Source: a virus (taxonomy: Duplodnaviria > Caudoviricetes). Taken from it: a stretch of DNA of 64,000 nucleotides. Shown here piece after piece: positions 3,576 through 49,911 of the stretch; within the stretch, counting starts at the first letter, position 1; each line of letters starts with the position of its first letter. The translations under genes and the position numbers were made by a program. The stretch covers positions 32,001 through 96,000 of the IMG/VR virus record IMGVR_UViG_3300014043_000503. One strand, given 5' to 3'. The notes under the pieces were generated by a model that was not told the origin of the DNA, searched no databases, and worked only from the letters and a program-made list of their open reading frames with translations.

Positions 3576-6046
3576 AAAGGAAAATTTGAGTTTTCGTTTG
3601 CGTTTTCATTTGATAGAAAAAAGTAACAAATACTTTTTATAGCTCTATCCGGTAACTATCTTTTTAAGGGGCTATCTAATTAATAAATCAAATAGCGCAC
3701 AACAATTTGGCAACCACACAAAAACCATATATAAACGATATATGGAAAGTGAATAACTTGTGAACTTGCAACCAAACTATAAAGATAGCATATAATTGCA
3801 AGTTCATTTCGTTTTTTGGTATGCTTTCCCTTTTTGTAGATATATTTGTTATCTGCTTTAAATATCATATTTTGTTGTTTGGTTGCAAGCCAAACAAATA
3901 CGATACTTAATTAAGAAACGCGCCTATTAAACGCGCTACACTCGTATAGGTGTTACCCTATCACTATACACAAAGAAAAACGCTTTAAACTGATTTTCGT
4001 TTGCCACAAATACCAAATCATTTTGCATATGATTTAATATTTGTTGGTGTTATTTGTAGGTATCCAACCAATTAAAAACCTTTTTCTTTGTAGGCTAAAA
4101 GCCCAAAAAGGGAGATACATTAAAATGTATCATTATTGCCTCAAAAAGCACTTACCACCAAAATTACATTTGTTTTATTTCCACTATCGTTTGGGTTTTC
4201 CACGTTTATTTTATACGTCCGGAAAGCTTTCTAACCACAAAAAGCTTTTTGCCCTTTTGCATAAATCTTAAGCAATTATTTATTATTTGTATCACTCTCT
4301 TTTCCTTTGCTCTTAAATAGCTTTTTCACTTGATACTTTGTTTATCAGGGCTTATTTGGCTATCACCCCCAAAAATCGGCTTGTTCGGTACATTTAAACC
4401 TAATACAAACATTTTTCAAGTGCTTTTTTATTTCCCCTTGTAGTTTCAGATGGACTAAAACCAAAAAAGATGGTTAACCTTTCCCCTTTCCAAAGGTAGT
4501 CTTTAGATAAAACCAAAGGGAGAGCGACACATTATTAAATAAACTTGTAACGCTAAAACTTTGCGCCTAATTTTGAAAACGTTTACCACTTAATCACTTA
4601 CAAAATACAAATCGTTTACCTTTGTAGGAATATTCCAAAATTAAACCGATAACAAATAAACTTTAGGCAATCACCCGATATTTACCGCTTTTAAATAGCG
4701 CCTAAATTTGTAACGCTTATTTGCTGATTTTTTCAAATCACCTAAAACAAATGTAATGAAATCAAAGAGCACACAACCTTTTTGTGGTTGCAATACGATG
4801 ATACATTATATTTATATAGAGTGTAACAAAAAAGGGAGATATTTTTTAATTATTTTGTAATTTACTGATTTTCAAATAGTTAGGAAAAGCAAATTTTTAA
4901 TTGTATTGTGTAATATTACATAAGGTAAAAAGAAAAAGTTTAGTACAAAAGTGAAACTGGATGAAAAAAGCAAAAATGGTTAAAGTTTTTGATATGTTAG
5001 AAATGGAACAATTTTGCACACAAAAGCCCTGAAAATCAAGCACCTAAAAGGGAGCAAAATTTTTATAACTGAGCACTCATGTAATACTTTTTTACCACCA
5101 CCACACCGAGCGGAGATACCCCCACACTCGCGTACCTTATATATAAGCATAATAGGTTCACTTTCTACAATAGTGAAACTATTTTCCAGAGAGAGGCCCG
5201 GAAAGTACCGAAAAATAAGGGGGAGGGTGTCGGTTGCACTGAAAACCCAACACACAAATTTTTGCCATTTTTGAATTTGAAAAATTTTAACTTAACGTGC
5301 TTTTCCCAGCCCCAAAATGAAACGGCCGATTAATAATATTATAGTATAAATACAACAGATGTTCCAGCTTTGAAAATTGTCCGATTTCTAACCTCCATAA
5401 TCACCAAAACCACCAAAAAATCTTACTTCCTGATCCTATAAAACCCACTCCAGAAAATCCCAAAAATTCTGGGGATCTGAATTTCAAATCCAAAATCAAT
5501 TTGTAAAAAATATTCTTAACATCGCCAAATTGCCGCGAAATCTTGCGCGTGCTGGCTTCAAATATATCTGGTGGACAACTTATCCACCCATCATAAAAAA
5601 GCCGCTCAGAACGAAAATTTCGAGGTCTTGCCACCCACTCCATCCACAAAACTTCAATCAGACACCAGATTTTCTTTCCTCTCAGCCCCTTTCACACCTC
5701 CAGCCATCAACTACACCTCCTGAATAACTTCAAACGCTCCAGACGAAAAATTTCAGAGATAACAAAAAGGCTGGTGATCTTCCCATATCTTTCCCAAACA
5801 ATTCCCAGAACGTTCCAAAACCATTCCAAGACCATTCCAAAAAAAACAAAATCACAAAATTAAATCTGAGATTGCCATAATCGGCAATAAACATAACAAT
5901 TTATCAACGATCAGCAAAATATAAAAAGCATTCTCTAAAATTTAAAGAACGGTCATAAACAAAAAATAATTCCTGAGAGTTAACCTAACAATAATATCTC
6001 AGCTATAAATCATAAAAATATTAATTGCTGGAAGTCAACCTATATG

Positions 6047-8031: not shown

Positions 8032-8104
8032 TGGCCAGTAAGGGACTCAAACCCTTATCTACGCTTTAGGAGAGCATTGTTCTGTTCGGTTGAACTAACC
8101 AGCC
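8032..8104 (-). tRNA. tRNA-Arg(CCT)
   Basis: Cloverleaf: acceptor GGCTGGT/ACTGGCC, D stem GTTC/GAAC, anticodon arm ATGCT-CTCCTAA-AGCGT, T arm AAGGG-TTTGAGT-CCCTT; no encoded CCA; atypical D and T loops. Confidence 0.8.
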
Positions 8105-8160
8105 TCAAAGAATATTAGAAAAATTCCAGCCGATTTCGTTTGTATCCGACCATGTTTTTT

Positions 8161-8272
8161 CTATTATATGACAAGTAGTTTTTTCATAAAGAGTTAATAG
8201 ATATTTTTCATTGGTTAAAAATTAGGTTAATAATGAAAGGCGAGGACTGTGAAGCCCCCGCCTTTCGGTTTT
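8161..8272 (+). ncRNA. putative small RNA (fourth CTGTGAAG hairpin unit)
   Basis: CTATTAT at 8161, ~65-nt U-rich body, hairpin GAAAGGCGAGGAC-TGTGAA-GCCCCCGCCTTTC at 8235-8266. Confidence 0.45.
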
Positions 8273-11721: not shown

Positions 11722-12371
11722 TTTCTCTTTGATTTTGAGTTGTTTATGATTCTTTGTTTTAATTTCCTGTCCTTTCCGAAATCCACCTCCTTGAGATAGT
11801 CCCAGAAATCCCTTATCTCCGTTCCGAAGTTCAGGAATGACGGACACATCTCGTCGCCCGTCCTCCAGTCCTTCGGAATCCTTGAGATGATTTCGGCCTC
11901 ATCCTCGTCCCACCACTTGTAGAACAGGCAATGATACCTGTCCATGCAGTAGCGGTTCTTGCAGATGCCACCCCTCTTGCGAAGTATCCTGTAGGCCCTT
12001 GGCGTTATGATCCAGGCGGTGTCAGGCAGTTCTTCGCGGAAATTCTCAGGCACCGTTCCTATGAGCCATGCGTCGTTTGTGCTGACGGCCGTGAAGTCCT
12101 TTCTCATGATGCAGAACTTCTTTCCGTCCATCCCGAGCATTGCCGGCCTTTTCATCCTACCCTGTTCGGGCAGCAGGAGGTAGCACTTGCCGCCAATCAC
12201 GTCGTACTTCCTTTTCTTCCTGACGATTCCAGACCAGAAGGCGCATTCCCAGCACAGGCATTCCTTGAGCATTTTCCTATGCACCTTGGATGACCTGCTG
12301 AAGTATAGGTCTGGTATGCGCTTCCCGCATTTCTCGCAGACTATATACGTGATGGTCAGCGTCCGCTTCAT
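11718..12371 (-). CDS. Cys-rich hypothetical protein (possible Zn-binding)
   Basis: CEKC, CWEC and CKNRYCMDRYHC motifs. Confidence 0.7.
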   Translation of the reverse strand: MKRTLTITYIVCEKCGKRIPDLYFSRSSKVHRKMLKECLCWECAFWSGIVRKKRKYDVIGGKCYLLLPEQGRMKRPAMLGMDGKKFCIMRKDFTAVSTNDAWLIGTVPENFREELPDTAWIITPRAYRILRKRGGICKNRYCMDRYHCLFYKWWDEDEAEIISRIPKDWRTGDEMCPSFLNFGTEIRDFWDYLKEVDFGKDRKLKQRIINNSKSKRK

Positions 12372-12955
12372 GCGCTGATGGAGTTGAATATCTCGTCCGT
12401 CTCCTGCTTCCTCAGGCCGATATATACCTGTGTGATCTTGATGCTTGAGTGGTGGAAGATATAGTTCAGCCTTATCAGGGCCTCGTCGGTTCTGCCCATC
12501 TTGTCATAGACGTACCGCCCGAAGGTCTTCCTGAAGGTGTGCGAGGAGAAGTTTCCTATCTTCAGCGAGTATTTTTCCTTCCACTGCTTGCAGAGCCTGT
12601 TGATGTACTGCCTTGAGACGGAGCTTCCCGTAATCGGTGAGTAGAGGATGCACTTGTCGCGTATGGGATATCCGGCAAGCTCATACAGGTTTGCCAGCCT
12701 TTCAGACACGCTCTTGCTGATGGGGATGCTCCTTGTCTTCTTGGTCTTCTTTTCCGTGATGATCACGCTGTCCCTGTCCAAGACGTCCATCCATCTGATG
12801 TTAAGTACGTCTGAGATACGCAGCGCGAGGCAGAAGGAGAGCAGGCAATATGCGCATTGCTTGTACTTTCCGTCTTTCTCCAGGCAGTCGAGTAGTCTCT
12901 GAAACTCTTCGTAGGACAAATAGTCCGCTGTTGTAATTGAATTTTTCTTGCTCAT
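12368..12955 (-). CDS. short tyrosine recombinase (catalytic domain only)
   Basis: LRISD, HTFRKTFG and HSSIKITQVY catalytic R-H-R-H-Y motifs; TAATTTTG promoter at 12986-12993. Confidence 0.85.
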   Translation of the reverse strand: MSKKNSITTADYLSYEEFQRLLDCLEKDGKYKQCAYCLLSFCLALRISDVLNIRWMDVLDRDSVIITEKKTKKTRSIPISKSVSERLANLYELAGYPIRDKCILYSPITGSSVSRQYINRLCKQWKEKYSLKIGNFSSHTFRKTFGRYVYDKMGRTDEALIRLNYIFHHSSIKITQVYIGLRKQETDEIFNSISA

Positions 12956-21765: not shown

Positions 21766-23136
21766 ATGCCTACAAACACTAATTTGGGTGGTGTCTTCAT
21801 GAAGGACACTGACGGCAATCTGAACACCGGTACATACCTGAGTTCCGAGAACGTCTGTGGTATCATCTTTGACACCAAGGTCGTTGGAGGTCTCGCAGCA
21901 GCTCTCGGAAGCGGCGATGCTGCCACCAACTTTGCAAATGGCAATGTGGTTGAACTGAACACGATGGACGATATTGCCGCAGCAGGTATCACCTCGTCCG
22001 TCATGTGCGGTCTGCCATTGTTCCATCTGACCCAATTCTTCCAGCTGGCAGGCGACAATCAGCGTTTGTTCGTGAGCTTCATGGACTCCACGTCCGATGC
22101 AAGCTTCACGGCTATTGAGCAGATGCAGCTGGCAGCCAAGGGTCTTATCTATCAGATCGGCGTATGGACAGGTGAGGCTATCGCTACCGCTCCTGAAGGC
22201 AATGGCGACTACAACGTAGTTACCAACGGAGTCCTCTCCAAGCTTCAGGCACAGGCAGAGGTTCTCGGCGGCAGGATCGGCCAGACGAACTTCGAGGGCA
22301 ATGCCCCCGTCAACATCGTCCTCACGGCTCCCATCATCAATGCCGCCACGTGCGACTACAACAAGCTCCCCGACCTGACATCCCTGAATATGCCGAAGGT
22401 GACTATGCTCGTCGGTCAGGCTGCAGGCAAGGAAGTCCACGACATCCAGCTTGCCCTTGCAACGTCCGTCGGCGAGACTACGAGCTATGCACTCGTCGGC
22501 TGCGTCGGTGCAGTCCTCGCTTGCCTGGCCGTTGCTCCAGCTGATGAGAGCATTGCCCACGTTGAGAACTTCAACATGGCTCAGGCAATGACGTCTGCGG
22601 AGCTCGGTTTCGGCAACCTTACCGTTACGAGCGGAGCCTACAATGCCGCTGCATCGTTCACCAACATTGACACCATCGGTTACACCAAGCGCAACACCAA
22701 GCTCCACCAGAAGGGCTATGTCTTCCTGACCACCCTCGACGGCATTGAGAACGGCGTGTTCGCTTCCAGTGACCAGACTCTCTCTACGGGCGACTACCGC
22801 CTTATCTCCCGCTGCCGTGTGATGCACAAGTCTCGCAGGGTTGTCCGTCGCTCCCTCCTCCCCTACGTCAACCAGACCTGGGAAGTTGACTCAGCCACGG
22901 GAACGCTCGGTGAGGATGACATCACCATCATCTCCAACACGGTTTACAGGGCCATTGATAACAACATGGTTCAGCCCGGCACCTCGAATCCGCAGATCAG
23001 CGGCCGAGAGGTTGTCATCGACCCGAATCAGGACATCCTGTCCTCCGATCAGCTGTTGATCACCTACAAGCTGGTTCCGAAGGGTACTACGGCTGCCATC
23101 TATGTTACCGAAGGGTTTAGTTCAAGCATTGGTTAA
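21766..23136 (+). CDS. tail sheath protein 1 (DUF2586-like)
   Basis: KGYVFL, DY..ISR.RVMHK..R..R and IDPNQDILS sheath C-terminal motifs; precedes tube. Confidence 0.75.
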   Translation: MPTNTNLGGVFMKDTDGNLNTGTYLSSENVCGIIFDTKVVGGLAAALGSGDAATNFANGNVVELNTMDDIAAAGITSSVMCGLPLFHLTQFFQLAGDNQRLFVSFMDSTSDASFTAIEQMQLAAKGLIYQIGVWTGEAIATAPEGNGDYNVVTNGVLSKLQAQAEVLGGRIGQTNFEGNAPVNIVLTAPIINAATCDYNKLPDLTSLNMPKVTMLVGQAAGKEVHDIQLALATSVGETTSYALVGCVGAVLACLAVAPADESIAHVENFNMAQAMTSAELGFGNLTVTSGAYNAAASFTNIDTIGYTKRNTKLHQKGYVFLTTLDGIENGVFASSDQTLSTGDYRLISRCRVMHKSRRVVRRSLLPYVNQTWEVDSATGTLGEDDITIISNTVYRAIDNNMVQPGTSNPQISGREVVIDPNQDILSSDQLLITYKLVPKGTTAAIYVTEGFSSSIG

Positions 23137-25790: not shown

Positions 25791-25860
25791 GTTTTGTTAG
25801 CAAGGTTTGAAAATAAATAAATGGAGACTATCAAATCTATTATATAAAAATTATACCACA

Positions 25861-27186
25861 ATGCCCGGATTAGGAAAGGTAACACTTGGAACCGTCAGCG
25901 ACAATTCATATATCAACATATCGTTTGACGAAAGTATTTGCGGAATGCTGTTTGACTACAGTTCAGACAGCGGTGTTTTTGACGCTCACCAGCTGATAGC
26001 CACCAACTTTGCGGACGGCCAGACTGTCGTTCTGAACGGTCTCGGTGACGCTGAAGGCTACGGTCTGCTGGATGAGAGCTTCATGTACGGCATCCCAGCC
26101 TACCATATCAGGAGGTTCTATGAGTTTGCCGACGATGATGCCGAGCTTTATGTCATGTTCGCCTCCTGCATCGCTGAATCTCAGGTATATACGCCAGACT
26201 TCAGCTGCATCCAGACCATGCAGAGGGCCGCGAAGGGAAAGATATTCAACCTCGGTATCTGGACGGAGCAGAGCGTATGGCAGATGAACGGAGAGGAAAT
26301 AGGCTTCACCCCGCTCATAGGAAACATACAGTCTCAGGCCATGGAGCTGTGCGGAGGCGACGGCATGTTTGCCAACAACGTATCTCCGCTAACCGTCATC
26401 CTCAATGCCAACACGTCTTCCATTTCCGGCTCTGACAGTAGGGAGGTGGATTTCAAGCACCTGCCCTATGCCAATTCGCTCGAATGCAACAAGGTAACGC
26501 TTCAGATAGGCCAGGAATCCTCGGACAAGATACACTCCATGCAGCTCTCAACGGTCTCGTTGACACCCGTGGGGCTGATGGGCGTTGCACTCGGATTCCT
26601 CAACAGGGCGTCGGCTGAGGAAAGCATGGGCTTCGTAAAGAAATACGATATCAACGTAAACGACACCCTCCCAGACGTTGAGCTTGGATTCGGGAACGTC
26701 AGCGTGGGAGGCGACAACTACTACACCCCGCTATCAGACGTCAACAGGTTCCGCCAGAACATCATGTCTGAAAGCGGCTACGTGTTCCCGACCAGCTATA
26801 TCCCAAATGAAGGATCGCTGTACTTCAACAACGACCAGACCCTTTCCGAGAAGGACTTCAAGTACATATCAAGGAACAGGGTCATGAGCAAGGTGAAGCG
26901 CATCATCAGGAGCATCATGCTCCCGATGGTCAACGGCAGCCTCCTCGTGAACCATAAGACCGGCTACCTTGACAATGCCGAGATTACGGTCATCATGAGC
27001 AGGATTATCAGCGCGCTTGACGAATACCTCATCAATCCTGAAGGCCAGCTGCAAGTGGGCGGCAGGTGGGTTGACATCCCATTGGATCAGAAAGTGCTTG
27101 AAACGGATTCTATCAGCATGACCGTCCAGATCGTACCGCTCGACACCTCCGAGGTAATCAAGTTTGAAGACACGTATAGCATTTAA
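25861..27186 (+). CDS. tail sheath protein 2 (paralog of 21766..23136)
   Basis: Start re-called at MPGLGKV after CTATTAT; colinear motifs CGMLFD, MQRAAKG.I..GIWT, ELGFGN, DQTLS..D...ISR.RVM.K. Confidence 0.75.
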   Translation: MPGLGKVTLGTVSDNSYINISFDESICGMLFDYSSDSGVFDAHQLIATNFADGQTVVLNGLGDAEGYGLLDESFMYGIPAYHIRRFYEFADDDAELYVMFASCIAESQVYTPDFSCIQTMQRAAKGKIFNLGIWTEQSVWQMNGEEIGFTPLIGNIQSQAMELCGGDGMFANNVSPLTVILNANTSSISGSDSREVDFKHLPYANSLECNKVTLQIGQESSDKIHSMQLSTVSLTPVGLMGVALGFLNRASAEESMGFVKKYDINVNDTLPDVELGFGNVSVGGDNYYTPLSDVNRFRQNIMSESGYVFPTSYIPNEGSLYFNNDQTLSEKDFKYISRNRVMSKVKRIIRSIMLPMVNGSLLVNHKTGYLDNAEITVIMSRIISALDEYLINPEGQLQVGGRWVDIPLDQKVLETDSISMTVQIVPLDTSEVIKFEDTYSI

Positions 27187-38160: not shown

Positions 38161-39543
38161 ATGGCAAAGGATATACTTATCGACATTGACGAGAGGGACG
38201 TGCTTGTAGGGAACGAAGGTGCGGGCACGAGGACGTTCTTTGACGTCATCTGGGGTGACATACTGGATGGCGATGACGGCAGCAAGCTCTATGCGAACGT
38301 CGTTATCCCCACCAACCACATCAATACGCTCACCCCTGGAAGCGACGGGTGCTACTACATGTACATCAAGTCCGACTACATGCCTTCGAACAGGTATTTC
38401 TACTTCAGGTTCGTCTATAGCGCCGAGGTATATAGGCCGATATCCGACTTCGACGCCAACCTCCCGAGCGAGGCCCCGGCATATTCCTACGTCTTCACCG
38501 ACGAATATGCGAGGAAGATCATGGCTTCCCAGCTGATGATGGTGAACGTTGACGGCTACTACCTGATACGCTTCTACAAGAGCGGCTACGACATATTTGA
38601 CAGGGCCTACCTGTACGACGGCCTTGAGACTGATTTCCTCTCAGGATACAGCGATGACCAGAGCGCCCAGGTGCTTGCCATCTGTGACGCGGGGAAGCAT
38701 TACCGCTACCCCACCACCGGCATCGGCATCACGGACTACATCAATTCCGTAGTCACCAACTCGGATATTGCCGGGAAGATACTTAGCCAGTATGAATCGG
38801 ACGGCGTCTCGGTAAGCGATGCGTCGTTCACATCGGCAACCGGCAGGCTTCAGGTGGAGCTTGCAGCCAAGGAACCTGACGTGGAGGCCGTTCCCCTCAT
38901 ATCCATCGACAAGCTGGACATGAGCATCATATCAGCCATGACGGACAGCTATATGAGGGCCATGAACTACATGGATACATCGAACAAGGAGCTGTTCCTC
39001 TCGCTGATGGCCGAATATGAGGAGTATATCGGACTGGTGTTCCTCAATGACAGCACCTCCACCATGCACCTGCTTACGGAGACAGTTGAGGAAGGCCAGA
39101 TACTTAACGCGGACGGTACGGCGAGCGCGTCACCGAGCTATACCGTAGTCACCGTCAGCATGGAATCGGGCGTTTTCGTGGTCTTTGACGTACCACACTA
39201 CAATTCCGACGATGAGCATCCAGTCATGTGCCTGTACGACTCATACGGTACGATGGTGTTCGCCGATACCGTGGGGGCTGACAGGAGCCTTGGGAACGAA
39301 TACATGCAATGCGCCTACATAGCCAAGCCGTGCATCATGAAATACTGCATACTCACTGAAGACTATGAGGCCGGACACGGCATCTTCCAGCTTGAGGATA
39401 CCTGGGACAACTACAAGAACATCGCCATCATCCCGGTGGATTCGATTACCGGAGATGTGAGCGGACTGATATACGTCGGCTCCAACATAACCGACATCGT
39501 AGAGAACGTGAACAGTGGTGAAATCATAACGAACCGAGTCTAA
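38161..39543 (+). CDS. structural protein with possible gp25-like baseplate wedge segment
   Basis: MAKDILID start and G..YRYPTTGIGITDYINS motif; CTATTAC upstream. Confidence 0.5.
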   Translation: MAKDILIDIDERDVLVGNEGAGTRTFFDVIWGDILDGDDGSKLYANVVIPTNHINTLTPGSDGCYYMYIKSDYMPSNRYFYFRFVYSAEVYRPISDFDANLPSEAPAYSYVFTDEYARKIMASQLMMVNVDGYYLIRFYKSGYDIFDRAYLYDGLETDFLSGYSDDQSAQVLAICDAGKHYRYPTTGIGITDYINSVVTNSDIAGKILSQYESDGVSVSDASFTSATGRLQVELAAKEPDVEAVPLISIDKLDMSIISAMTDSYMRAMNYMDTSNKELFLSLMAEYEEYIGLVFLNDSTSTMHLLTETVEEGQILNADGTASASPSYTVVTVSMESGVFVVFDVPHYNSDDEHPVMCLYDSYGTMVFADTVGADRSLGNEYMQCAYIAKPCIMKYCILTEDYEAGHGIFQLEDTWDNYKNIAIIPVDSITGDVSGLIYVGSNITDIVENVNSGEIITNRV

Positions 39544-40139
39544 TGAGCAGCGTCATCAGCATAGGAAAGAAGCCCGTATATAGGGGTGTCTATAACTCCA
39601 CGGTCAAATACTACAGTGAGAACATGGTGGCCATGTGCGCCTGCATGTTCCAGTGCGTAGCCCCGTCCATCGTCGGGGTTCCCCCAATCACCATAGACGG
39701 CAGCGGCAGGGCCTCGTTCGCCAATACGTCTTCGTGGAACGTGGTCATAGACAACCTATCGCTCTACAACAACATAACCTACGTGGAGGAAAAGACGAGC
39801 CTGATCAGGAACACCGTGGATGAGTTCGTCGTGACCATCTCGGACGATTGGGCTGAGGACACCGACTATGTGGTGGGGAACTACGTGATCAGGGGAGGTG
39901 CCCTGTATGAATGTATCTCGGCACATAACTCCGGAAGCACGTTTGACCCGACGAAATGGGAGCAGACCACCATCGCGAACATGGTTGACACCCTCAGCGC
40001 GGACATCATAAGGCTCGCCAATGCCATATCGAGCATCGTGGATTCAGACATCTACCTTACCGAAAGCGAGTATGAGGCACTCGTGGAGGCCGGTGAGGTT
40101 GATCCTGACAAGAGATACTTTACCTACGAGGACGAATGA
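39543..40139 (+). CDS. tail-associated protein with CBM5/12-like module
   Basis: WAEDTDYVVGNYVIRGGALYECISAHNS...PTKW; C-terminal LTESEYEAL...DPD..Y motif. Confidence 0.55.
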   Translation: MSSVISIGKKPVYRGVYNSTVKYYSENMVAMCACMFQCVAPSIVGVPPITIDGSGRASFANTSSWNVVIDNLSLYNNITYVEEKTSLIRNTVDEFVVTISDDWAEDTDYVVGNYVIRGGALYECISAHNSGSTFDPTKWEQTTIANMVDTLSADIIRLANAISSIVDSDIYLTESEYEALVEAGEVDPDKRYFTYEDE

Positions 40140-40312
40140 TATACAGGAACGGTCAGGAAACGACGGGCATCTACCATGCAGGCAGGGCTATAACCGCAGT
40201 ATATACTGGGTTAAGGCTCGTATGGCAGAACGTCAGGAGTTGCTTTGGCAAGGGTTACTGGATAGACGAGAAGCCGTGGGACGATTCCGACGGCTGGAGT
40301 GACGGAATTTAA
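40136..40312 (+). CDS. 58-aa tail-fibre-associated protein
   Basis: Hand-translated MIYRNGQETTGIYHAGRAITAVYTGLRLVWQ...PWDDSDGWSDGI*; ATGA overlap. Confidence 0.6.
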   Translation: MIYRNGQETTGIYHAGRAITAVYTGLRLVWQNVRSCFGKGYWIDEKPWDDSDGWSDGI

Positions 40313-40325
40313 AAAACAAGATATA

Positions 40326-43300
40326 ATGGCAAAGAAGGATTTATATACCGAGGATATTGACAAGCACGTGAACTGGAACGGTGACGAGACCACCGGCGGC
40401 AAGAAAGTCCGTGGCGACAAGGTTCAGAAGTTTATCAAGGACACTTTCGAGGGGAAGGTCGGGTACGTACATACCGACACCGAGGAAGCGAGGTGCTACG
40501 CCTTTGCCGATGAGGAGGAGTACAAGAAGTGGGAGGCGGACGGAAGACCTGAGGGTGCCTATATCTCGACATGGGAAGCCCCTGCCAACTATTCCGCTGA
40601 GATTATCGACAACGACGGTGCTGCCATCAGGTACGTGGCCGTTGACGATAAGGACGTGTATCTCAACTTCACTCCCAGGATCACCAACAAGAGCGGCCAG
40701 AACACCAACGAATCCGTAACCGTCACGATCACCTACTCCAACAACGGCACGAACGTCACGGTGACGAACAACTACATATCAGGAACCTCGGTATCAATCC
40801 TGATGGACAGCTACCTTCAGGTCGGCACCAACTCCATTACCATCAAGGTGACTGGTGCAAGCTCAAAAGCAACGACCTCCATCGGTATCACGGTGTACAA
40901 GCTTGCCCTTACCCTTACCTCCACCTTTGCCTTCAACAGCATGTTCCCGACTGGGTATATCAACGTGCCCTACCACCTTGAGGGAAACGGAACCAAGACC
41001 GTAGAGATATTCCTTGACGGCACAAAGGTAGGTGATTCAAGCACCTATTCAACAAAGACTGATAACTCATTCAACGTCAATGCGGTAACTGCTGGTGTGC
41101 ATACCATTCAGTTAAGGGCTTTCATTGACAATAACGGTACGGCATTCTATTCCAGGACGCTGTATTTCCAGGTAGTCGTTGGCGAGATTGACCGTGTCGG
41201 CTTTGCCATGAGCGCAGAGCTTCCAAGGGGCGGGCTTATCACGTCTGACAATTCGGTAGCCCTGACAGGCGAGCAGTTTGCGAGGATCAATTTCGACTGG
41301 GCCATCGTCACTTCAAGGAGCGCCACCTATTCCGTGGTGTTCAACGATGGCACAAGGGACGTAAGCTCCGTTACCACCTCAAGCGGCCAGCTCCATACGT
41401 TCACCTATCTCTCCAAGACCGCAGGCGTAGTCACCATCAGGGTTTCCTACGGCTCGGAGGAACTGGAGATACCCATCACGTTCGTAGAGAGCACGCTGAA
41501 GATAAGCGACTATACCAACGACCTTATCCTTGACCTTTCCGCTGAAGGGCGTTCCAACAGCGACACGGACAAGGACAGCTGGATATCGAACGGATATGCC
41601 TCTACCTTCAGCAACTTCGCATGGAGCAAGAGGAGCGGCTGGAACGGACAGGCCCTCGTGGTTTCAAACGGCGCGACGCTCGACGTGAACATCAGACCGT
41701 TCTCATTCAACCCGACATCGAGGGGAACGACCATCGAGATAGAGTTTGAGACTGCCGACGTTGAGGATGAGGAGGCCGTAATCTGCCGTTGCGGTGCCGG
41801 TTCGAACGGCCTTACCATCACCCCGGTAAACGCTACGCTGGCGGCAACCGGAGGCTCCAAGATATTCACTGAGTTCAAGAACGACGAGCGCATCAGGCTT
41901 GCATTCGTCATCAACCCCTATTCGGGCGTAACGGACTCGAAGCTCCTGTATATCGTCAACAACGGTATCAATGAGCGTGGAAGATCCTATGCCACCCAGA
42001 ACGACTTCAATATCTCAGACACGCTCCATTTCTATTCAACTGGGGCGACCATCAAGATATACAATATCAGGATCTACCAGCAGGCCGTTCCAGTGAGCAA
42101 CCTGCTGGATAACCGCATCATCAGCTCAGACAACATATCATCCCTGTTTGAGAAGAACGACATCTATGAGGACGGCAAGGTGTCTCTGACGAAGCTGAGG
42201 AACATGATCCCCGTCATGTGCATCACCCACATCAACAGGAGCGGAAACCCCTCGCTGCTCTCACTCAGCGACAAGGACACGCGCTCCTACAACAACGTGG
42301 AATACACGAACCCGTTTGACCCGACGAGGAACTTCACGGCCTTCAACATGCGCTGGAGGCTCCAGGGTACTTCATCGCTCAAGTATCCGAGGAAGAACTT
42401 CAGGTTCTACACCAAATACTGCGACTATCTCTATGATGCTAACGGAATCGAGATCACCAGCAAGAAATACTCGTTCAAGGTCGGTTCCATCCCGGTGAAC
42501 TGCTTCTGCCTGAAGGCCGATGCAGCGGAATCCTCAGGAACGCACAACACCGGTATTGCAAGGCTCGTGAACGATGCCATGAAGAACATGAGGATATCAT
42601 CGAGCGTGGCAGCCAAGTACGGAAAGTCATACGACACCGAATACCTTGGCAAGACGCAGGCCCAGATAAACGCTGAGAACAACGGCTACGAATACGACGT
42701 GAGAACCTGTATCGACGGTTTCCCGATCGTGATCTTCTACCGCTATTCCGACGTGAGCGACTGGATCTTCCTCGGCCAGTACAACTTCAACAACGACAAG
42801 TCAACGGAGGACGTGTTCGGCTTCACAGGAGAGAATGCAACAGGCCATTCGGAGTGCTGGGAATGCCTTGACAACACCAATCCCAACGCCCTCTTCACGG
42901 ACATCTCAAACTGGTATGAGGACGTCACGGACGAGGAAGGGAGCACCGTCAAGGGCTGGGAGCGCGCATTCGAGGCCCGCTATCCCGATGATGGCTCAGA
43001 CGCTAACACGGCCAATCTCTATACGTTCGCCACATGGCTCGTAGGCTCAACCGTAGGCTCCGCAAAGTTCACGGCTGAGAAGTGGGAGCACATGGACGTA
43101 TGGAAGATGGCAGCCTACTACGTCTATCTGATGAGGTTCGCAGGTGCCGACCAGTTTGTGAAGAACTCCATGCTGACAACCGAGGACGGCGAGCATTGGT
43201 ACTACATCAACTACGATAACGATACGGTCATGGGTCTGGAGAACAACGGAGACCTGACGATCCCCTTCAATGCAGACCGCCAGACGCAGGCAGCCGACAT

Positions 43301-46300
43301 GACATACGTATTCGCAGGACACAACTCAAAGCTCTGGAACTGCCTTGAGGGTGACGCTGAGTTTATGAACATCGTGAAGGACGTTGACCAGGCACTCTAC
43401 GGCTACTACAACTATGAGTCTTGCTGCAGGATGTTCGATGAGGAGCAGTCTGACAAGTGGTGCGAGGCCATCTACAACGAGAACGGACGCTACAAGTATA
43501 TCGAGCCATACCTTGCCGGAACCGACTACCTTGCCATGCTTCAGGGTTCGCGTAAGTCACACCGTCACTACTGGCTCTCACACCGTTTTGAGATGCTGGA
43601 TGCACGGTGGGGCACGGGCAGCTTCATCCAGAACTCCATCGAGTTCAAGTGCAATACCGGAACGGTGGTGACGGCTGAAAAGAAGCTCACCATCATCGCC
43701 GGAAAGAAGCTCAACTATGCCTGGGGCCTTGATAACGCAATCTATGAGCACACCGGCGTCCTCGATGCGAACGAGACCAAGGTGTTCATCCCATACGACC
43801 AGGGCGTGAGGGAACTCGCCATCGGTAACTCCGTATGTATCTACCCAGCCCCCTGCATCGAGGGCATAGACGTGTCTGACTTTGCCGACACCATGCGAGA
43901 GATACACTTCTCAAAGGCGGCAAACGGATTCACCGGCTGCTACCTGAAGAGGCTCATCATCGGAGGCGCTTCGGTAAACAACCAGCTCGACTTCAACATG
44001 GACGGCCTGACAGCCATCGGAAGCGTGGAGTATATCGACGTGAGGGGATTCCACAGGATGACCTCGCTCGACCTCTCAACGCTCATCAACCTCCATACGT
44101 TCCTTGCAGAGAACAGCGGTATCACCTCGTTCATCCCATCCTCAGGCTGCGTGCTTGAATCGGTTTCGCTCCCATCCAGCATCCAGACGCTTGAGCTTGT
44201 GGACGTGACTATCCCGACCGTCAATACGTTTGCATACACCCCGACCAGCGCCCTCCAGTACCTCACCCTCAGGAACGTGAAGGGTGATGGCATTGACTCG
44301 CTCGCCTTCATCATGACATGGCTGAATGCCATCGGAGATGACGAGGAAAGGCTGGCAGAGGTTGAGCTTATCGCAACCAACGTGGCTTGGAGCAACGTAA
44401 CGGTCGAACAGCTGTTTGCCATCGGAAAGATCGGGAACAGGACGCTCTCAGGCGTGGCATCGCTCTCGACCACACCGAGCGATGAAGACCTGCAGAAACT
44501 CATCGAGCTTTACGGGACAGACTGCTTCAAGTCTGACGCGCTGTTCATGATCGACGCTGAAGGAGGTACGCTTTTCTACGGCCCCAGCACCCTGAAGTCC
44601 GGAGAGGAAAGCTACTACGGCTATATCGGATTCCCCATCACGGGAGGCTCTTCACAGTATTCGCTACTTATCCCGGGAGGTGTGTACAACGAGACTACGA
44701 GGCTATATGAATACGATACCGTGACGCTGAACCCTGAGACCGGCCTTCTGCTTACGACTGAAAGCGGGACGGACTGCGATTTCGTCATCAGGGCCAAGTC
44801 GAACTTTGACGAGAGCGTCTATTTCGAAAAGCAGGTAAGCGTCAAGGCAAGGTCTTATCCCCAGAGCGTCACCCTCACCGTTGACAGGGAGAACATCAAC
44901 AGCACCTCACAGGAATGTATCTTCACGGCAGAGCTTTCCCCTGAGGTGTTTGACGGAACCATAAGCGTCGCATGGAGCTGGAACGACAACAATTTCTACA
45001 AGATATCGGAATGGAAGGTTGACAACAACACATATTGTGCCAAGTTCGGTACGGTGTATATCTCAGACAAGCTGCTTGAGGTAGATGTGACGGCCACCTT
45101 CACAACCTATATCGGAGGCGTCGTCGCGGCTTCGTCCTATGTCGTGGTCAGCAACAAGACGATCGCCATGACGAGCAGGACGAACCATGAGGCAATGGCG
45201 GCTACATACGCGGCTGGATTCAGCAACAGCAGCAGGGTCTTCAGCACCGAGGAGGCCAGGGCCGTGAAGAGCCTTGGCATGGCCTATGCCGGATCAGACA
45301 TCGTGACCTTTGACGAGTTCAAGTATTTCACGGGTCTCACCTCCATTCCTGCAGGTGCGTTTGCAGGGTGCCTGAGCCTTGAGGAAATCACCATCCCGGC
45401 TTGTCAGGCCACCATCGGAGATGCGCTCTTTGAAGGCTGTGCATCCCTTGAGAAGATAACGCTCAACCATCCTTCATGGAGCAACAGGTATCTCGGAAGC
45501 GGAACCGTATTGTCTGAGTATGCCGTAGGAGCTGAGAACACCAACCTCAGGAGTTTCGACGGCATCATATACGACGTGCTGGGAACGGAGCTCTATGCAG
45601 TACCGGCCAACATCACGGAGATAGCGTTCGAAAGCACCATGACCGCCATCCATGCAGGCGCGATGGCTTACTGTGACATAGAGGAAGTGACCATACCGAC
45701 AGTCATTACAGTCGTTCCCGATCAGATGTGTAAGGGCTGCACTTCCCTTGTCACGGCCATCCTCTCGACTGGAACCGTAAGCGTTGGCGCAAAGGCTTTC
45801 GAGGGCTGCGCTGCGCTGAAGAAGCTTGAGGTAAGGACGGCATCAGTACCTACCCTCGTCAATGCGGATGCGTTTACTGGAACGCCCATCAACGGAGGCG
45901 CGGGCTATATCTATGCGACTACCGATACATGGGGGGACTTCAAGGCCGCTACCAACTGGATCACATATGCCAGCAACATCATCGCTTACATCATCTTTGA
46001 GGACGCTGAGGTCAGCAGGATATGTTGCACGACCTGGGGTGACTATATCGAGGTGAAGGTGACTACTGTCATTACCGACGAAAGCGACGTGGTGAACATC
46101 ACGACCGTCACCACCCCCGTATCCATGAGAAACACCACCGCTACAAGGGGAACCTCGGTCACTGAGACATCTACGAGGGCCAAGACTTCTGAAGATACGG
46201 CAGGCTCTACGACCACTACCACAAAGACACCCGTCAGCATGACAACCATGCAGGCTGCTGCTGTAAGTTCTATTGGGACTATTGTTAACGTTCTCGGACA

Positions 46301-46661
46301 CTTAAAGATTGTAGATGTCACACGTACATTCCCAACAACGGTTCCTATTTACGGACTGATAGCAGTTTATACAATCAAAACAGCGGATTGCTCTGTTGTT
46401 TTCAATACTGACACCAGCCACACTATACGATTGTTCATGTGGAATATGTATTGGGGCTATATTGACGGTGGTGGCTCATATAGAGTTATTACAACGTGGA
46501 GAAGTATTGGCGATAATAAGTATTTAACATTCTTCGATGATTCACGTTCTAATCCTTATGTTGATGTTTACGTCAACTTTTCAACCATTAACGGTTATCA
46601 ACCACAAAACTATAAAACAGGCTATGTATTTGCCCTTGTCGATAGCAGAAATCTTGAATAA
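40326..46661 (+). CDS. giant tail adhesin/receptor-binding protein (Ig-like, LamG-like, CotH-like and BspA-type LRR regions; switchable C-terminus)
   Basis: Start re-called at MAKKDLY; QGTSSLKYPRKNF / YNFNNDKS / YDNDT motifs; LTSIPAGAFAGCLSLEEITIP LRRs; GC drop at 46270. Confidence 0.8.
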   Translation: MAKKDLYTEDIDKHVNWNGDETTGGKKVRGDKVQKFIKDTFEGKVGYVHTDTEEARCYAFADEEEYKKWEADGRPEGAYISTWEAPANYSAEIIDNDGAAIRYVAVDDKDVYLNFTPRITNKSGQNTNESVTVTITYSNNGTNVTVTNNYISGTSVSILMDSYLQVGTNSITIKVTGASSKATTSIGITVYKLALTLTSTFAFNSMFPTGYINVPYHLEGNGTKTVEIFLDGTKVGDSSTYSTKTDNSFNVNAVTAGVHTIQLRAFIDNNGTAFYSRTLYFQVVVGEIDRVGFAMSAELPRGGLITSDNSVALTGEQFARINFDWAIVTSRSATYSVVFNDGTRDVSSVTTSSGQLHTFTYLSKTAGVVTIRVSYGSEELEIPITFVESTLKISDYTNDLILDLSAEGRSNSDTDKDSWISNGYASTFSNFAWSKRSGWNGQALVVSNGATLDVNIRPFSFNPTSRGTTIEIEFETADVEDEEAVICRCGAGSNGLTITPVNATLAATGGSKIFTEFKNDERIRLAFVINPYSGVTDSKLLYIVNNGINERGRSYATQNDFNISDTLHFYSTGATIKIYNIRIYQQAVPVSNLLDNRIISSDNISSLFEKNDIYEDGKVSLTKLRNMIPVMCITHINRSGNPSLLSLSDKDTRSYNNVEYTNPFDPTRNFTAFNMRWRLQGTSSLKYPRKNFRFYTKYCDYLYDANGIEITSKKYSFKVGSIPVNCFCLKADAAESSGTHNTGIARLVNDAMKNMRISSSVAAKYGKSYDTEYLGKTQAQINAENNGYEYDVRTCIDGFPIVIFYRYSDVSDWIFLGQYNFNNDKSTEDVFGFTGENATGHSECWECLDNTNPNALFTDISNWYEDVTDEEGSTVKGWERAFEARYPDDGSDANTANLYTFATWLVGSTVGSAKFTAEKWEHMDVWKMAAYYVYLMRFAGADQFVKNSMLTTEDGEHWYYINYDNDTVMGLENNGDLTIPFNADRQTQAADMTYVFAGHNSKLWNCLEGDAEFMNIVKDVDQALYGYYNYESCCRMFDEEQSDKWCEAIYNENGRYKYIEPYLAGTDYLAMLQGSRKSHRHYWLSHRFEMLDARWGTGSFIQNSIEFKCNTGTVVTAEKKLTIIAGKKLNYAWGLDNAIYEHTGVLDANETKVFIPYDQGVRELAIGNSVCIYPAPCIEGIDVSDFADTMREIHFSKAANGFTGCYLKRLIIGGASVNNQLDFNMDGLTAIGSVEYIDVRGFHRMTSLDLSTLINLHTFLAENSGITSFIPSSGCVLESVSLPSSIQTLELVDVTIPTVNTFAYTPTSALQYLTLRNVKGDGIDSLAFIMTWLNAIGDDEERLAEVELIATNVAWSNVTVEQLFAIGKIGNRTLSGVASLSTTPSDEDLQKLIELYGTDCFKSDALFMIDAEGGTLFYGPSTLKSGEESYYGYIGFPITGGSSQYSLLIPGGVYNETTRLYEYDTVTLNPETGLLLTTESGTDCDFVIRAKSNFDESVYFEKQVSVKARSYPQSVTLTVDRENINSTSQECIFTAELSPEVFDGTISVAWSWNDNNFYKISEWKVDNNTYCAKFGTVYISDKLLEVDVTATFTTYIGGVVAASSYVVVSNKTIAMTSRTNHEAMAATYAAGFSNSSRVFSTEEARAVKSLGMAYAGSDIVTFDEFKYFTGLTSIPAGAFAGCLSLEEITIPACQATIGDALFEGCASLEKITLNHPSWSNRYLGSGTVLSEYAVGAENTNLRSFDGIIYDVLGTELYAVPANITEIAFESTMTAIHAGAMAYCDIEEVTIPTVITVVPDQMCKGCTSLVTAILSTGTVSVGAKAFEGCAALKKLEVRTASVPTLVNADAFTGTPINGGAGYIYATTDTWGDFKAATNWITYASNIIAYIIFEDAEVSRICCTTWGDYIEVKVTTVITDESDVVNITTVTTPVSMRNTTATRGTSVTETSTRAKTSEDTAGSTTTTTKTPVSMTTMQAAAVSSIGTIVNVLGHLKIVDVTRTFPTTVPIYGLIAVYTIKTADCSVVFNTDTSHTIRLFMWNMYWGYIDGGGSYRVITTWRSIGDNKYLTFFDDSRSNPYVDVYVNFSTINGYQPQNYKTGYVFALVDSRNLE
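46270..46279 (+). repeat. shufflon crossover site 1 (CTATTGGGAC)
   Basis: Inside adhesin gene, encodes S-I-G-T. Confidence 0.8.
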
Positions 46662-47086
46662 TTACAAATCATATATCACAGTAAATCCACAGTATGACGT
46701 ACTTGTAAGCTTAGAATAAAAAGTCCAAGACGAATCATATCCAGTGGCACCAACAGGCACATGAAACTCGTTTGTTCCTGAATTTCTTGTATTATAACCT
46801 GTTGATGTAGCTGAAGCGTTACCGAATATATATCCATTATCTGCTGTTTTAGGAACTGTCTGCGGATAACACAATATTTTCTTGAGCCTCGGAGTATTTG
46901 CAAATGATCCGTTTCCAAAGCGATTTACGGAAGCTGGAATCCAAATCTCAGTTAATTGGCTACATCCATTAACAAATGAACGTCCCATAGTCTTTAGTTT
47001 AGAAAAGTATATAAGCTCCCTGAAAGTAACTATCTTTGTATTATTAGTGAATACAGTTGTTGAACTTGTGTTTGCAGTCCCAATAG
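46662..47086 (-). other. silent C-terminal cassette B (LRR), starting at crossover site 2 (47077-47086)
   Basis: Open frame SIGTANTSSTTVFTNNTKIVTFRELIYFSKLKTMGRSF... continuous with track ORF 46662..46988. Confidence 0.8.
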
Positions 47087-47096
47087 AGCTACAATC

Positions 47097-47623
47097 CTAT
47101 TGGAACTCTAATCAACAAAATAATAAACATTGCTAATAGCCACTTTCCAGAGGGTGTATATTTTACAGGATTATCTACGACTTGGACAAATGGTCTTAGA
47201 GGCAACACGGGATTGGTAGAGTTATATATGCCAGACCACATATTGTATCTTAACCTTAATTATTTTATTTACTACGACACTGTTTTAAAGAAAATACATA
47301 TTCCAAGAAACCTCGTTGAATGGACTGGCTACCAAACACTATTATTTAATGCAAAACCGTCCGTTCCGATTGATTTCCCTGAAAGTTGCAAAAAGCTTAA
47401 CTTTAAGTCCAGTAGCGATAAATCGGTTTCAAAATGTGATGTCATATTGCGTTCCCAAACATTAGTTGATGTCCAGCCCTCTTCCTACACCAACATATTT
47501 GCAAATGATGTAAATATATATGTTCCAAGTGTTTTGATAGATAGCTACAAAGCATTAAACCCATTTGCTAATCGTAACGTATATGCTATAGAGGGTTCTA
47601 AATATGAAAATGTGATATATTAA
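47097..47623 (+). other. silent C-terminal cassette C, starting at crossover site 3 (CTATTGGAAC 47097-47106)
   Basis: Open frame PIGTLINKIINIANSHFPEGVYFTGL... continuous with track ORF 47213..47623. Confidence 0.8.
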
Positions 47624-47646
47624 AAACTATGCGGCGAGTACACGGG

Positions 47647-48152
47647 TTAAACTGTGTACTCACTCATAGACTTAATCTTAGAAGCAATGCCAGACCAAAC
47701 GGAAGCGGCCTTGTATGCGCTCACGCTTTCATCTGGAACATAGACGGCAGTTAACTTTGTGAGATAGTTATTACTTCCGAGATCCGGAGGCGTGACGGCT
47801 CTACAAATAACTATAAAATTCTTTTGGTTTGTATCATAAGGTTGAAGAGAATAACCATTCATTGTTTTCATAGTTGACGGAAAATCAATCAGCGTTATGT
47901 TTCTACTTTCCCAACACCACCTGCCATAAGTGGTAGTTAAACCTTCATTAAATTTCAAAGTTGTTAGATTTAGACAATGTCTGAAACAGTATGAATTAAC
48001 CGATGTTCCTATATTTCTCAGACTTGTTGGGAATATAATTTCTGCAATACCACTTCCTTCAAAAGCACCATTGGCCAGCGTAGTTAAGTTGAAGAACATA
48101 AATTCATGGAACTTGCGGATTGTGGTATTGTTACGGAACGCCGTCCCAATAG
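47647..48152 (-). other. silent C-terminal cassette D (LRR), starting at crossover site 4 (48143-48152)
   Basis: Open frame PIGTAFRNNTTIRKFHEFMFFNL... continuous with track ORF 47647..48099. Confidence 0.8.
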
Positions 48153-48156
48153 GACG

Positions 48157-49146
48157 TTACCTGAATGCTTTCCTTATTTCCTTATTAATTGTCCTGTCCT
48201 TTATTGTCGTATATACCTGGGTTGTATTGATTGATGTGTGACCTAAGATAGAGGCAATGACAGGCATATTCACACCCTTCAGCAACAACAGCGTAGCCAA
48301 AGTATGTCTTGCACAATGGAAGCTGATGTGTTTTTTTATTCCTATCCTGTTTGTTATCCGCTCAAGTATGATGTTCGTCCTGGCATTGGACGGTAATCGG
48401 AACAGTCTGCCTCGCCCTACATCTTCGGTCATGCCAATAGCCTTGCCTCCGAACATTCTTGATATCGGCACCCTGACTTCCCTATCCGTCTTCTTCATTC
48501 TTATCACCAGCCATTTGTGACGATATAGTGACTTGATATTTGACCGTTGGACGCGCTGGATATCTGAGAAACGCAAGCCCGTATAGACCGAGAACAGGAA
48601 GCCCCTCGCCACTTCCTTCTCGTCGCCGTCCAGCCTGTCAACGGAATTTTCAATCTTCTTTATCTCGCCCTCAGTCAACGTGTTCTTTTTCGTCTGTTCC
48701 TGATGTATGTGGTATTTCCTGAATGGGTTCGTCAGCATGATATCATTGTCGATGGCGAGGTTGACGTAGCGCTTGAAGATTTTCATGAACTTGGCTAACG
48801 TATTTGCTGCATATCCCAGCGATTTCACATAGCTGTCAAATTCAAGGATAAACTCATAGGTAATGTCGCTGAAGGTAAAGTTATATCGGAATCCTCTCAG
48901 CACGTCCAGCGTATTCTGATGATTGCATATCGTTCCCTTTGAAAGCCTGAGAGCGTGTATCTGTTGCTGCATCCATTCAGGAAATGAACGGTTATCCCTT
49001 ACTGCAAGATGTTCGGGGTTATCAGCCAGCAGGTTAATACCCCCCACCCTTTTCGTATAATATTTGTCGTTAACCTGGATCTGGATGAGCGCGTTGGTGC
49101 CTGAAAGCTTTGCGGCAATGTCGTTGATGATTGATGATATGTCCAT
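48157..49146 (-). CDS. tyrosine recombinase (putative shufflon invertase)
   Basis: TGLRFSD, FHCARHT and LGHTSINTTQVY motifs with SAM-like N-domain; stop codon 4 bp from site 4. Confidence 0.88.
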   Translation of the reverse strand: MDISSIINDIAAKLSGTNALIQIQVNDKYYTKRVGGINLLADNPEHLAVRDNRSFPEWMQQQIHALRLSKGTICNHQNTLDVLRGFRYNFTFSDITYEFILEFDSYVKSLGYAANTLAKFMKIFKRYVNLAIDNDIMLTNPFRKYHIHQEQTKKNTLTEGEIKKIENSVDRLDGDEKEVARGFLFSVYTGLRFSDIQRVQRSNIKSLYRHKWLVIRMKKTDREVRVPISRMFGGKAIGMTEDVGRGRLFRLPSNARTNIILERITNRIGIKKHISFHCARHTLATLLLLKGVNMPVIASILGHTSINTTQVYTTIKDRTINKEIRKAFR

Positions 49147-49293
49147 GATGTCTGATGTTTTTGATGTTAATGAAGCGCAAATAAAGCGATAATATCCCTA
49201 TTCAGACCATTTCATTAACCATTTTTACCATGAATTTTCAAAATCATAATCCCGCAAGCCAAAAAAGACTATTATAGTACAAAACGAAATCGA

Positions 49294-49911
49294 ATGGTTA
49301 TCGAAGGGAATCACATCATTGCCGACGAGGGGAAAGTCCTCAGGAGAAAATCTGACAAGCGGGTGTTCAACAGGGAACTCTGGCTTGGGAAGGCTTTCTA
49401 CGTCAACGGCAAGAAACTCGCCGAGCCGGTGGATGAGAAGCCGTCAGACTATGAGGACGTTGAGGAGGCCGCTGCCATAGCCGAATATGACAAGATGATT
49501 GCCATGAGGAAGGCGAAGATAGAGATGATAACGGCCTACGACCTTTCCTCTGCCGTCAACGGATTCACGTTCAACGGTATCAGGATGTGGCTCGACAAGG
49601 CCACGAGGATGAGCCTGAGGAACAGCGTGGAGATCACGAAGGCAGCCGGTGGGACATCATACGCATTCTGGTGGGACATGGACAAGTACGAGATTGAGTG
49701 CGACCTGTTCCTTGAGATGCTTTCAGCCCTTGAGATATACGCCATCAACTGCTATGCCACCACCGAGAGGCACAAGTCTGAGGTCAATTCCCTCTGCGAC
49801 CTGATGGACATCGAGGTATATGACATAACGGTGGGTTATCCCCCGCAACCAGTATTCAAGAATGACAATAAAGTACGCATACAGGAGAATCAGGAGAAGG
49901 TGGAAGAGTAG
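49294..49911 (+). CDS. DUF4376-like tail fibre-associated protein
   Basis: YD.SSAVNGF..MWLDKATR...LEIYA..CY..T..H...YDIT.GYP motif. Confidence 0.6.
   Translation: MVIEGNHIIADEGKVLRRKSDKRVFNRELWLGKAFYVNGKKLAEPVDEKPSDYEDVEEAAAIAEYDKMIAMRKAKIEMITAYDLSSAVNGFTFNGIRMWLDKATRMSLRNSVEITKAAGGTSYAFWWDMDKYEIECDLFLEMLSALEIYAINCYATTERHKSEVNSLCDLMDIEVYDITVGYPPQPVFKNDNKVRIQENQEKVEE

Follow-up and report, generated by a model that had tools for sequence, protein, structure and literature searches.

A probable four-cassette shufflon at the C-terminus of a 2120-residue phage tail protein, with relatives in gut and rumen viral contigs

Results

A tail-protein gene with interchangeable 3' ends

The 64,000-nucleotide (nt) window analysed here, positions 32,001 to 96,000 of the 115,181-nt IMG/VR provirus record IMGVR_UViG_3300014043_000503, contains four alternative coding segments, hereafter cassettes, arrayed between the body of a gene for a 2120-residue tail protein and a gene for a tyrosine recombinase. 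The evidence makes it highly probable that this locus is a working multiple-inversion system (a shufflon) that swaps the tips of the tail protein. Underlying this conclusion are the arrangement of short sites and cassettes, the coexistence of two orientations of the array in sequencing data, and the permutation of homologous cassettes among related viral contigs.

The cassettes are delimited by a 10-nt core, CTATTGGRAC, whose four copies are the only ones in the whole 115,181-nt record; 0.24 copies are expected by chance, and 0 of 100 shuffles reach four matches. Their order, + - + -, is that of a shufflon, with at least three short sites alternating in orientation. All four copies are read in the same phase from the preceding codon, encode S/P-I-G-T and open a stop-free frame. 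The features of the locus, in which LRR denotes a leucine-rich repeat and positions are those of the window, are as follows.

40299-46268, + strand: constant part of the gene for the 2120-residue tail protein, from its open reading frame (whole gene 40299-46661)
46270-46279, + strand: site 1, CTATTGGGAC; crossover site within the expressed gene; a contig of run X1 ends at 46279
47077-47086, - strand: site 2, CTATTGGGAC
47097-47106, + strand: site 3, CTATTGGAAC; 10 nt from site 2
48143-48152, - strand: site 4, CTATTGGGAC; 4 nt from the recombinase stop; contig break and junction unitigs in run X1
46269-46661, + strand: cassette A, 130 residues; expressed in the assembly; non-LRR tip
46662-47087, - strand: cassette B, 141 residues; silent; LRR-type tip
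47096-47623, + strand: cassette C, 175 residues; silent; LRR-type tip
47647-48153, - strand: cassette D, 168 residues; silent in the assembly; LRR-type tip
47627-47669, no strand assigned: hairpin between the convergent cassettes C and D, from direct folding; a U-run follows it on the minus strand
48157-49146, - strand: tyrosine recombinase, 329 residues; PF00589 (Phage_integrase) 70 bits, PF13102 (SAM_5) 68 bits
46280-49235, no strand assigned: low-GC (guanine plus cytosine) module of cassettes, recombinase and recombinase upstream region, from the GC profile; exchanged as a block in a relative (run X4)

The stops of cassettes A and B abut as TAATTA. The silent frames of B, C and D begin just 1-3 codons ahead of their sites, and the first ATG, GTG or TTG is reached only at codon 34 in B, codon 40 in C and codon 19 in D; the cassettes are alternative C-terminal segments that are in frame with one constant gene and have no starts of their own. 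GC content falls from about 0.54 to 0.33-0.40 at position 46270, within site 1, and climbs back near 49300. A first-pass annotation of this DNA had proposed a tyrosine-recombinase shufflon with an architecture like those of the Rci and Rin systems. Its four core copies, their common x-I-G-T phase, the four stop-free cassettes, the abutting A and B stops, the 10-nt spacing of the inner sites, the 4-nt gap between recombinase stop and site 4 and the abrupt GC drop at site 1 were all recovered here, and the layout, phase and recombinase class bear the proposal out.

The hairpin between C and D has a folding energy of -23 kcal/mol (z -6.9) on the plus strand and -18.5 kcal/mol (z -5.6) on the minus strand, and is likely a terminator behind D. 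Direct folding gave no comparable hairpin at the A/B boundary, and a consensus scan found zero intrinsic terminators and no excess of promoter-like sites. An additional CAATCGGAAC at 47363(-), inside cassette C, opens 14 codons only and was rejected as a site because the count of such 10-mers is within chance, with about 3.5 expected in the record and 2 observed besides the four sites.

In the mechanism that we propose, the adjacent tyrosine recombinase would pair two oppositely oriented copies of CTATTGGRAC, exchange strands inside the 10-bp core and flip the intervening DNA. With the cassettes promoter-less, start-less and in the common phase x-Ile-Gly-Thr, a flip involving site 1 would replace the last 130-175 residues of the tail protein: recombination of site 1 with site 4 installs D, recombination of site 1 with site 2 would install B, and C would require two flips. 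A lysate would then be a mixture of virions with different distal tips, most likely binding different Bacteroidales surface structures.

Inversion between the outer sites in sequencing data

Sequencing evidence was drawn from Logan contigs and unitigs, which derive from a k=31 graph. The contigs of run X1, a single sample and probably the source of the window, are interrupted precisely at the two outer cores: the first runs up to 46279, the second, of 1883 nt, corresponds to 46270-48152, and the third begins at 48143. Four 50-nt unitigs lie at these breaks, two carrying the reference junctions (46250-46299 at depth 12.5 and 48123-48172 at depth 16.5) and two carrying inverted ones. In the first inverted unitig (depth 8.8), the reverse complement of 48143-48172 is joined to 46280-46299, linking the recombinase-side flank to cassette A; the second (depth 6.2) consists of 20 other letters followed by the reverse complement of 48123-48152, which fits the tail gene joined to cassette D. 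At either end of the flipped 1883-bp segment, inverted junctions make up a share of 0.33-0.35, and about one third of the molecules carry cassette D fused to the tail gene through a flip between site 1 and site 4. A 50-nt bubble is the outcome of a k=31 graph for two junction forms that share exactly 10 nt, which places the exchange inside the core. The seven X1 pieces all share 99% identity or more with the window and show no other differences, and thus both forms belong to the same strain. Inversion in DNA is documented by these junction unitigs and by the permuted segments of the relatives described below. Alternative junctions, which the first-pass annotation had anticipated at all four sites, were therefore present for site 1 with site 4 and were not seen at sites 2 and 3, where the X1 assembly has no branch.

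Several observations count against a switch that is in operation. The 1883-nt contig of X1 crosses sites 2 and 3 unbranched and no flip at either was seen, with the reservation that contigs drop rare variants; the only inversion seen is that between site 1 and site 4, in one sample; two stable sub-populations would look like ongoing switching; the core of site 3 differs from the other three at one position (A for G); and two other tyrosine-recombinase-like genes occur in the record, far from the locus. It is conceivable, then, that the inversion is real but not ongoing, with two fixed lineages (A on the gene in one, D in the other) left by a past rearrangement and a module that is a fossil or switches very rarely. 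Such an account would accommodate the two states, one site pair and one sample observed, and contigs cannot show rates. We nevertheless judge it very unlikely. Apart from the flip, both X1 forms represent a single strain, the recombinase is intact, the cores have been kept identical within each locus, and the silent cassettes are permuted between near-identical relatives and have ratios of nonsynonymous to synonymous substitution rates (dN/dS) of 0.08-0.15, which indicates purifying selection. An operating shufflon remains the preferred reading.

Further runs (X2-X19) each contained 5-9% of the sampled words and were used only for individual pieces, not for habitat or strain. In X5, from bovine gut, a 90-95% similar copy of cassette C stands directly after ..AQAALVSS, the joint of the expressed gene, and C therefore occupies the expressed slot of a relative. 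On comparison with relatives, B and C would probably be used in the present phage as well. A contig of a relative in X4 follows the window as far as 46280 and rejoins it at 49235, the intervening 2323 letters being different, and these boundaries indicate that the whole low-GC module was exchanged at the site. In X2, a 98% identical cassette D is followed by DNA other than the recombinase.

Permuted cassettes in a family of related loci

At least 22 further loci, on IMG/VR contigs designated here by numbers between L001 and L067, carry 2-11 such cassettes each between a homologous recombinase and a homologous tail gene. Four contigs encode recombinases 74-79% identical to that of the window, and three of them share its layout, with 2 cassettes in L003, 6 in L004 and 11 in L002; the fourth, L001, ends 114 nt past the recombinase stop, at its first site. 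A profile search added about 27 loci with recombinases approximately 44-54% identical. In 18 of the 24 that were examined, 2-8 cassettes at CCATCGGRAC lie between the recombinase stop and the tail gene; the recombinases of these 18 are about 51-54% identical, their tail gene belongs to the same PHROG as the 2120-residue protein, and, upstream of the site, its frame runs without a stop for about 520 codons, except in two loci with 13 and 72. The related loci have between 2 and 12 sites, and one family member is found in NCBI assembly GCA_000759075.1.

Pairs of closely related contigs record the rearrangements that a shufflon is expected to leave. Between L050 and L051, a 99.1% identical two-cassette unit has been relocated from the recombinase side of the array to the gene side, with the remainder inverted, and L052 and L056 display the same pattern at 99.9% identity; in both pairs the breakpoints lie at sites. 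The residue ahead of I-G-T changes with cassette position, being S beside the gene or the recombinase and P at inner sites. The window, L003 and L004 have an A-type tip in the expressed position, whereas in L002 this type of tip is silent.

The cassette regions have 36-40% GC in every locus compared (window 46280-48142, L002, L003, L004, L046, L050 and L051), and the constant part of the tail gene has 54-56% in one subfamily and 46-47% in the other. This uniformity suggests a shared, mobile pool of cassettes, the alternative being the codon bias of these domains.

Other peculiarities of the family were recorded alongside. Neighbouring sites of the same orientation, with cassettes in tandem, occur at 4519/4973 in L002, 4711/5195 in L048, 8835/9319 in L052, 3316/3800 in L054 and 8864/9348 in L056, and recombination between such sites would delete a cassette. 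Several contigs (L001/L034, L039, L048, L049, L060 and L067) stop within a cassette array or immediately beyond the recombinase, where mixed orientations would be expected to interrupt short-read assembly. In L003 (7131-8048, with 8050-8185), a gene for a 305-residue HNH-type endonuclease lies between the recombinase gene and the first site; the C-terminal end of the recombinase there is divergent, and just ahead of the site lies what is left of the normal 3' end (..RRAFR stop), an arrangement that looks like a homing-endonuclease insertion into the invertase gene. At 4491-4535 in L002, the last recombinase codons (..RRAFR) resemble many cassette starts (I-G-T-A-F-R; 18 nt, 83% identical DNA), which may be a relic site or a coincidence.

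The recombinase and its recombination core

The 329-residue protein belongs to the tyrosine recombinase superfamily, with a PF00589 score of 70 bits against a cut-off of 27.1 and a complete catalytic set (R192, K219, H277, R280, H303 and Y312 in an alignment to XerA, 4a8e). Its position next to the last site is kept in more than 20 related loci, and it is presumed to be the invertase of the locus. Within NCBIfam, it reached no curated cut-off: the best score was 78.8 bits against a required 329.6 for XerD, the tyrosine-type DNA invertase model NF007370 gave 20.2 against 221, and the named families tested (FimB/FimE-type invertase, XerC/D and integron integrase) all fell short. Serine recombinases (PF00239) had no match across the record. 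A search of genome contigs, used for host phylum only, returned recombinase relatives just 28-34% identical, all but one in Bacteroidota and mostly in Bacteroidales. The closest GenBank recombinase, in MT835728 (38% identical), was considered as a shufflon relative and set aside, as an iteron-like repeat region and no cassette array adjoins it; it is probably an ordinary integrase. Elsewhere in the record, a second tyrosine recombinase of 195 residues, consisting of the catalytic domain only (PF00589, 68.9 bits), is encoded at 12368-12955(-), distant from the shufflon, and an integrase-like gene lies near the record end.

Across 24 sites, C-N-ATYGGRAC is invariant, flanked by a more weakly conserved R-Y-Y on the left and K on the right. 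Its N and Y fall at synonymous codon positions; they are uniform within almost every locus and differ between loci (T/T in the window, A/C in L004, C/C in L002 and L003), giving the lineage variants CTATTGG, CAATCGG and CCATCGG. Uniformity at synonymous positions agrees with a requirement that two recombining sites be identical where strands are exchanged. A 13-mer that is partly palindromic, GTYC-T-ATT-GGRAC, contains the core, and the outer sites conform to it better, as 13-bp near-palindromes (GTYCTATTGGGAC).

The repeats could, in principle, be a mere conserved coding motif, S-I-G-T at the starts of LRR modules in four separate small genes, with the recombinase a phage integrase and no programmed inversion. 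BspA-type modules do have SIGT as a conserved joint, L050 likewise contains ..AAAVSSIGT.., and PHROGs annotates the recombinase as an integrase. This explanation is contradicted by the inverted junctions in the reads of X1. Moreover, the non-homologous A tip has the same 10-mer, the synonymous positions of the motif are identical within a locus, and the cassettes run for 18-39 codons without a start codon in frames that begin immediately before the site; another integrase-like gene is available near the record end, and L050 has a separate 396-residue integrase beside its shufflon recombinase. We regard a simple coding motif as scarcely credible, and recombination sites as the better description of the repeats.

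Tips, tail protein and genomic setting

Three of the four tips can be assigned to the BspA type of LRR domain. Cassette D matches Pfam LRR_5 at 44.2 bits, above the cut-off, and cassette B reaches 27.0 bits, slightly below the cut-off of 27.7; cassette C is linked to the LRR type only through a profile of the LRR cassettes of the family, with a probability of 96.9% (hhalign), and an Atlas look-up of it gave LRR_5-bearing viral clusters as low-ranked leads only. The A type scores 0.3% against the same profile and forms a conserved group of its own; cassette A has zero Pfam matches and is 55-71% identical to tips in L002, L003 and L004. The original division of the tips into BspA-type B, D and probably C and a seemingly unrelated A is thereby upheld. 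Cassette B is 59% identical to a silent cassette of L003 (8189+). An AlphaFold model of the A-type tip, built on a five-sequence alignment, consisted mostly of beta strands with a mean predicted local distance difference test score of 51, a quality too low for it to be of use.

The constant part of the tail protein contains an internal BspA-type LRR domain (residues ~1770-1894), a Thr/Ser-rich linker and the joint ..QAAAVSS ahead of site 1, and matches LRR_5 (72 bits) and phrog_14959/24896. Its gene is preceded by genes for a portal, a protease, two sheath-like proteins, a 1927-residue tape measure and baseplate-hub proteins, and stands directly after the last two. The portal shares 51% identity with that of the 112-kb Bacteroides phage BS-TP1, and every portal match is to a phage of Bacteroidota; together with the two sheath-like genes, these matches make it plausible that the phage is a Bacteroidales myophage. 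Megablast of the locus against GenBank phages gave no match. Both sheath-like genes lie in one tail module, at 21766-23136 and 25807-27186, and are related to DUF2586 and phrog_907 (E 2.6e-17 and 4.7e-8); a PDB sequence search with the sheath-like protein found no match. A small protein with a CBM_5_12 carbohydrate-binding module is encoded at 39543-40139, directly ahead of the giant tail gene.

Residues 130-1300 of the tail protein are 27-30% identical to a large tail protein of hankyphage-type Bacteroides phages, in which a diversity-generating retroelement (DGR) is reported to diversify the tail fibre (PMC12135933). In one such phage, BT-TP2, the homologous tail gene is followed by a reverse transcriptase, and a 112-nt repeat, 90% identical, pairs the 3' end of the gene with the spacer before the reverse transcriptase, constituting a DGR variable-region and template-repeat pair. 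With a variable region at the 3' end of the hankyphage-type gene, the protein family is one whose C-terminus is already recognised as being diversified, and because that homologue is a DGR-diversified scaffold, the C-terminus of the present protein is a strong candidate for a host-recognition determinant.

Whether the switched tips choose the bacterial host is a separate matter. The switch could work while its BspA-type LRR tips bind mucus, feed particles or animal-host surfaces, or evade antibodies, and so favour persistence in the gut. In Bacteroidota, proteins with BspA-like LRRs act as general adhesins; furthermore, the constant part already has one LRR domain, and the CBM_5_12 protein is encoded just upstream. 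On the other hand, the gene follows baseplate genes, and to our knowledge every shufflon or invertible tail-fibre system characterised so far (Mu, P1, p15B and R64) has its receptor specificity set by the C-terminus that is swapped. A homologue of the protein is, in addition, the DGR target that is named tail fibre in hankyphages (PMC12135933). Taking these points together, we consider an adhesive role that bypasses host choice unlikely; by analogy with the characterised systems, the tips would set host range.

Discussion

A mechanistic precedent outside phages is the R64 shufflon, in which Rci switches the tips of pilV. As is proposed for the present locus, a tyrosine recombinase drives multiple inversion, in-frame sites lie within coding sequence, and flips swap the C-terminus of an adhesin. 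The sites of R64 conserve only a short core and one arm. R64 differs in being a conjugative plasmid with a pilus adhesin and 19-bp sfx sites, and the similarity of the recombinase described here is of only a generic Xer/integrase level in NCBIfam. Inversion by Gin, Cin and Min has the same outcome, swapping the C-terminal part of a tail fibre, and changes the host range of Mu, P1 and p15B; these enzymes are, however, serine invertases that act with an enhancer and Fis, whereas the 115-kb record has no PF00239 gene.

Among phages, the Rin shufflon of Bifidobacterium breve and B. longum prophages, with 11-bp sites (Mavrich et al. 2018, PMC6109161), is similar in several respects. There, too, a phage-encoded tyrosine recombinase without an arm-binding domain adjoins alternative C-terminal cassettes of a receptor-binding protein, and short asymmetric sites part the cassettes, which fuse to a constant N-terminal gene (PMC6109161). 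Some of its sites are directly repeated, as in the family described here, which poses the same puzzle of how deletion is avoided (PMC6109161). Rin differs in its site, TTCCCTAACCC, in its actinobacterial hosts, in belonging to siphophages, and in tips that resemble the TP901-1 receptor-binding protein rather than LRR domains (PMC6109161). The Rin core TTCCCTAACCC was not found at the cassette borders, and its single one-mismatch match elsewhere in the window is at chance level.

Another precedent is a BV01-like phage of Phocaeicola vulgatus, for which a preprint (Sept 2026, PMC13596623) describes a tail-fibre shufflon with configurations quantified from reads. It is likewise a temperate phage of Bacteroidales, in which a region of several cassettes, flanked by a recombinase, extends over the 3' end of the tail-fibre gene and has a 10-bp core; it differs in its motif, TGGGAGAACT with 14-18-bp extensions, in having three cassettes and six isoforms, and in a carbohydrate-binding fibre in place of LRR tips (PMC13596623). 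Allowing up to one mismatch, TGGGAGAACT has 4 matches in the window, none of them in the locus, which is chance level and no enrichment. Set beside the 11-bp sites of Rin (PMC6109161) and the 10-bp core of the BV01-like phage (PMC13596623), the 10-bp core of the present locus is not unusually short, and the first-pass description of it as such does not hold.

Hankyphage-type DGRs (PMC6199706, PMC12135933) act on the same scaffold, and its C-terminus is diversified in both systems; there, reverse-transcriptase mutagenic homing alters one tip, whereas the recombinase described here would choose among prefabricated tips. Phage tail-protein shufflons with tyrosine recombinases are thus already known, and the present family, with its LRR tips and S-I-G-T sites, is a new example; in the literature searched, we found no description of a family that combines these two features.

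A broader interpretation, which we offer tentatively and hold to be somewhat less probable than its negation, is that cassettes and recombinase make up a portable diversification module that has spread across Bacteroidales phages with very different backbones, docking in every case at the conserved ..AAV-S-S-I-G-T joint before an LRR module. The backbones that bear it include the 115-kb myophage with its 2120-residue fibre and others with fibres of 1446 residues or split into 971 and 658 residues. The idea of a portable module fits the cassette GC of about 36-40% whatever the backbone (46-56%), the presence of a different module between exactly the same boundaries in a relative, and the matched cores that each lineage has as its own (CTATTGG, CAATCGG and CCATCGG). 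Such lineage-own cores would make co-resident shufflons orthogonal; and if the module is portable, then with DGRs acting on the same scaffold the tail protein would serve phages of gut and rumen as a general socket into which tips that vary host range, up to 11 per phage, could be plugged.

These loci also have practical implications. Assemblies of such phages break or freeze at the locus, and annotation will miss the silent tips. The C-terminus of the tail protein, as a candidate host-recognition determinant, would be useful for host prediction and for selecting or engineering phages against laboratory strains of Bacteroides or Prevotella. With their small size, the sites and recombinases might also become compact inversion tools. 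Bacteroidales vary their capsules and surface proteins by DNA inversion. The locus described here is probably a phage-side counterpart, shuffling prefabricated LRR and non-LRR tips onto one tail protein, in a family present in many gut and rumen viral contigs.

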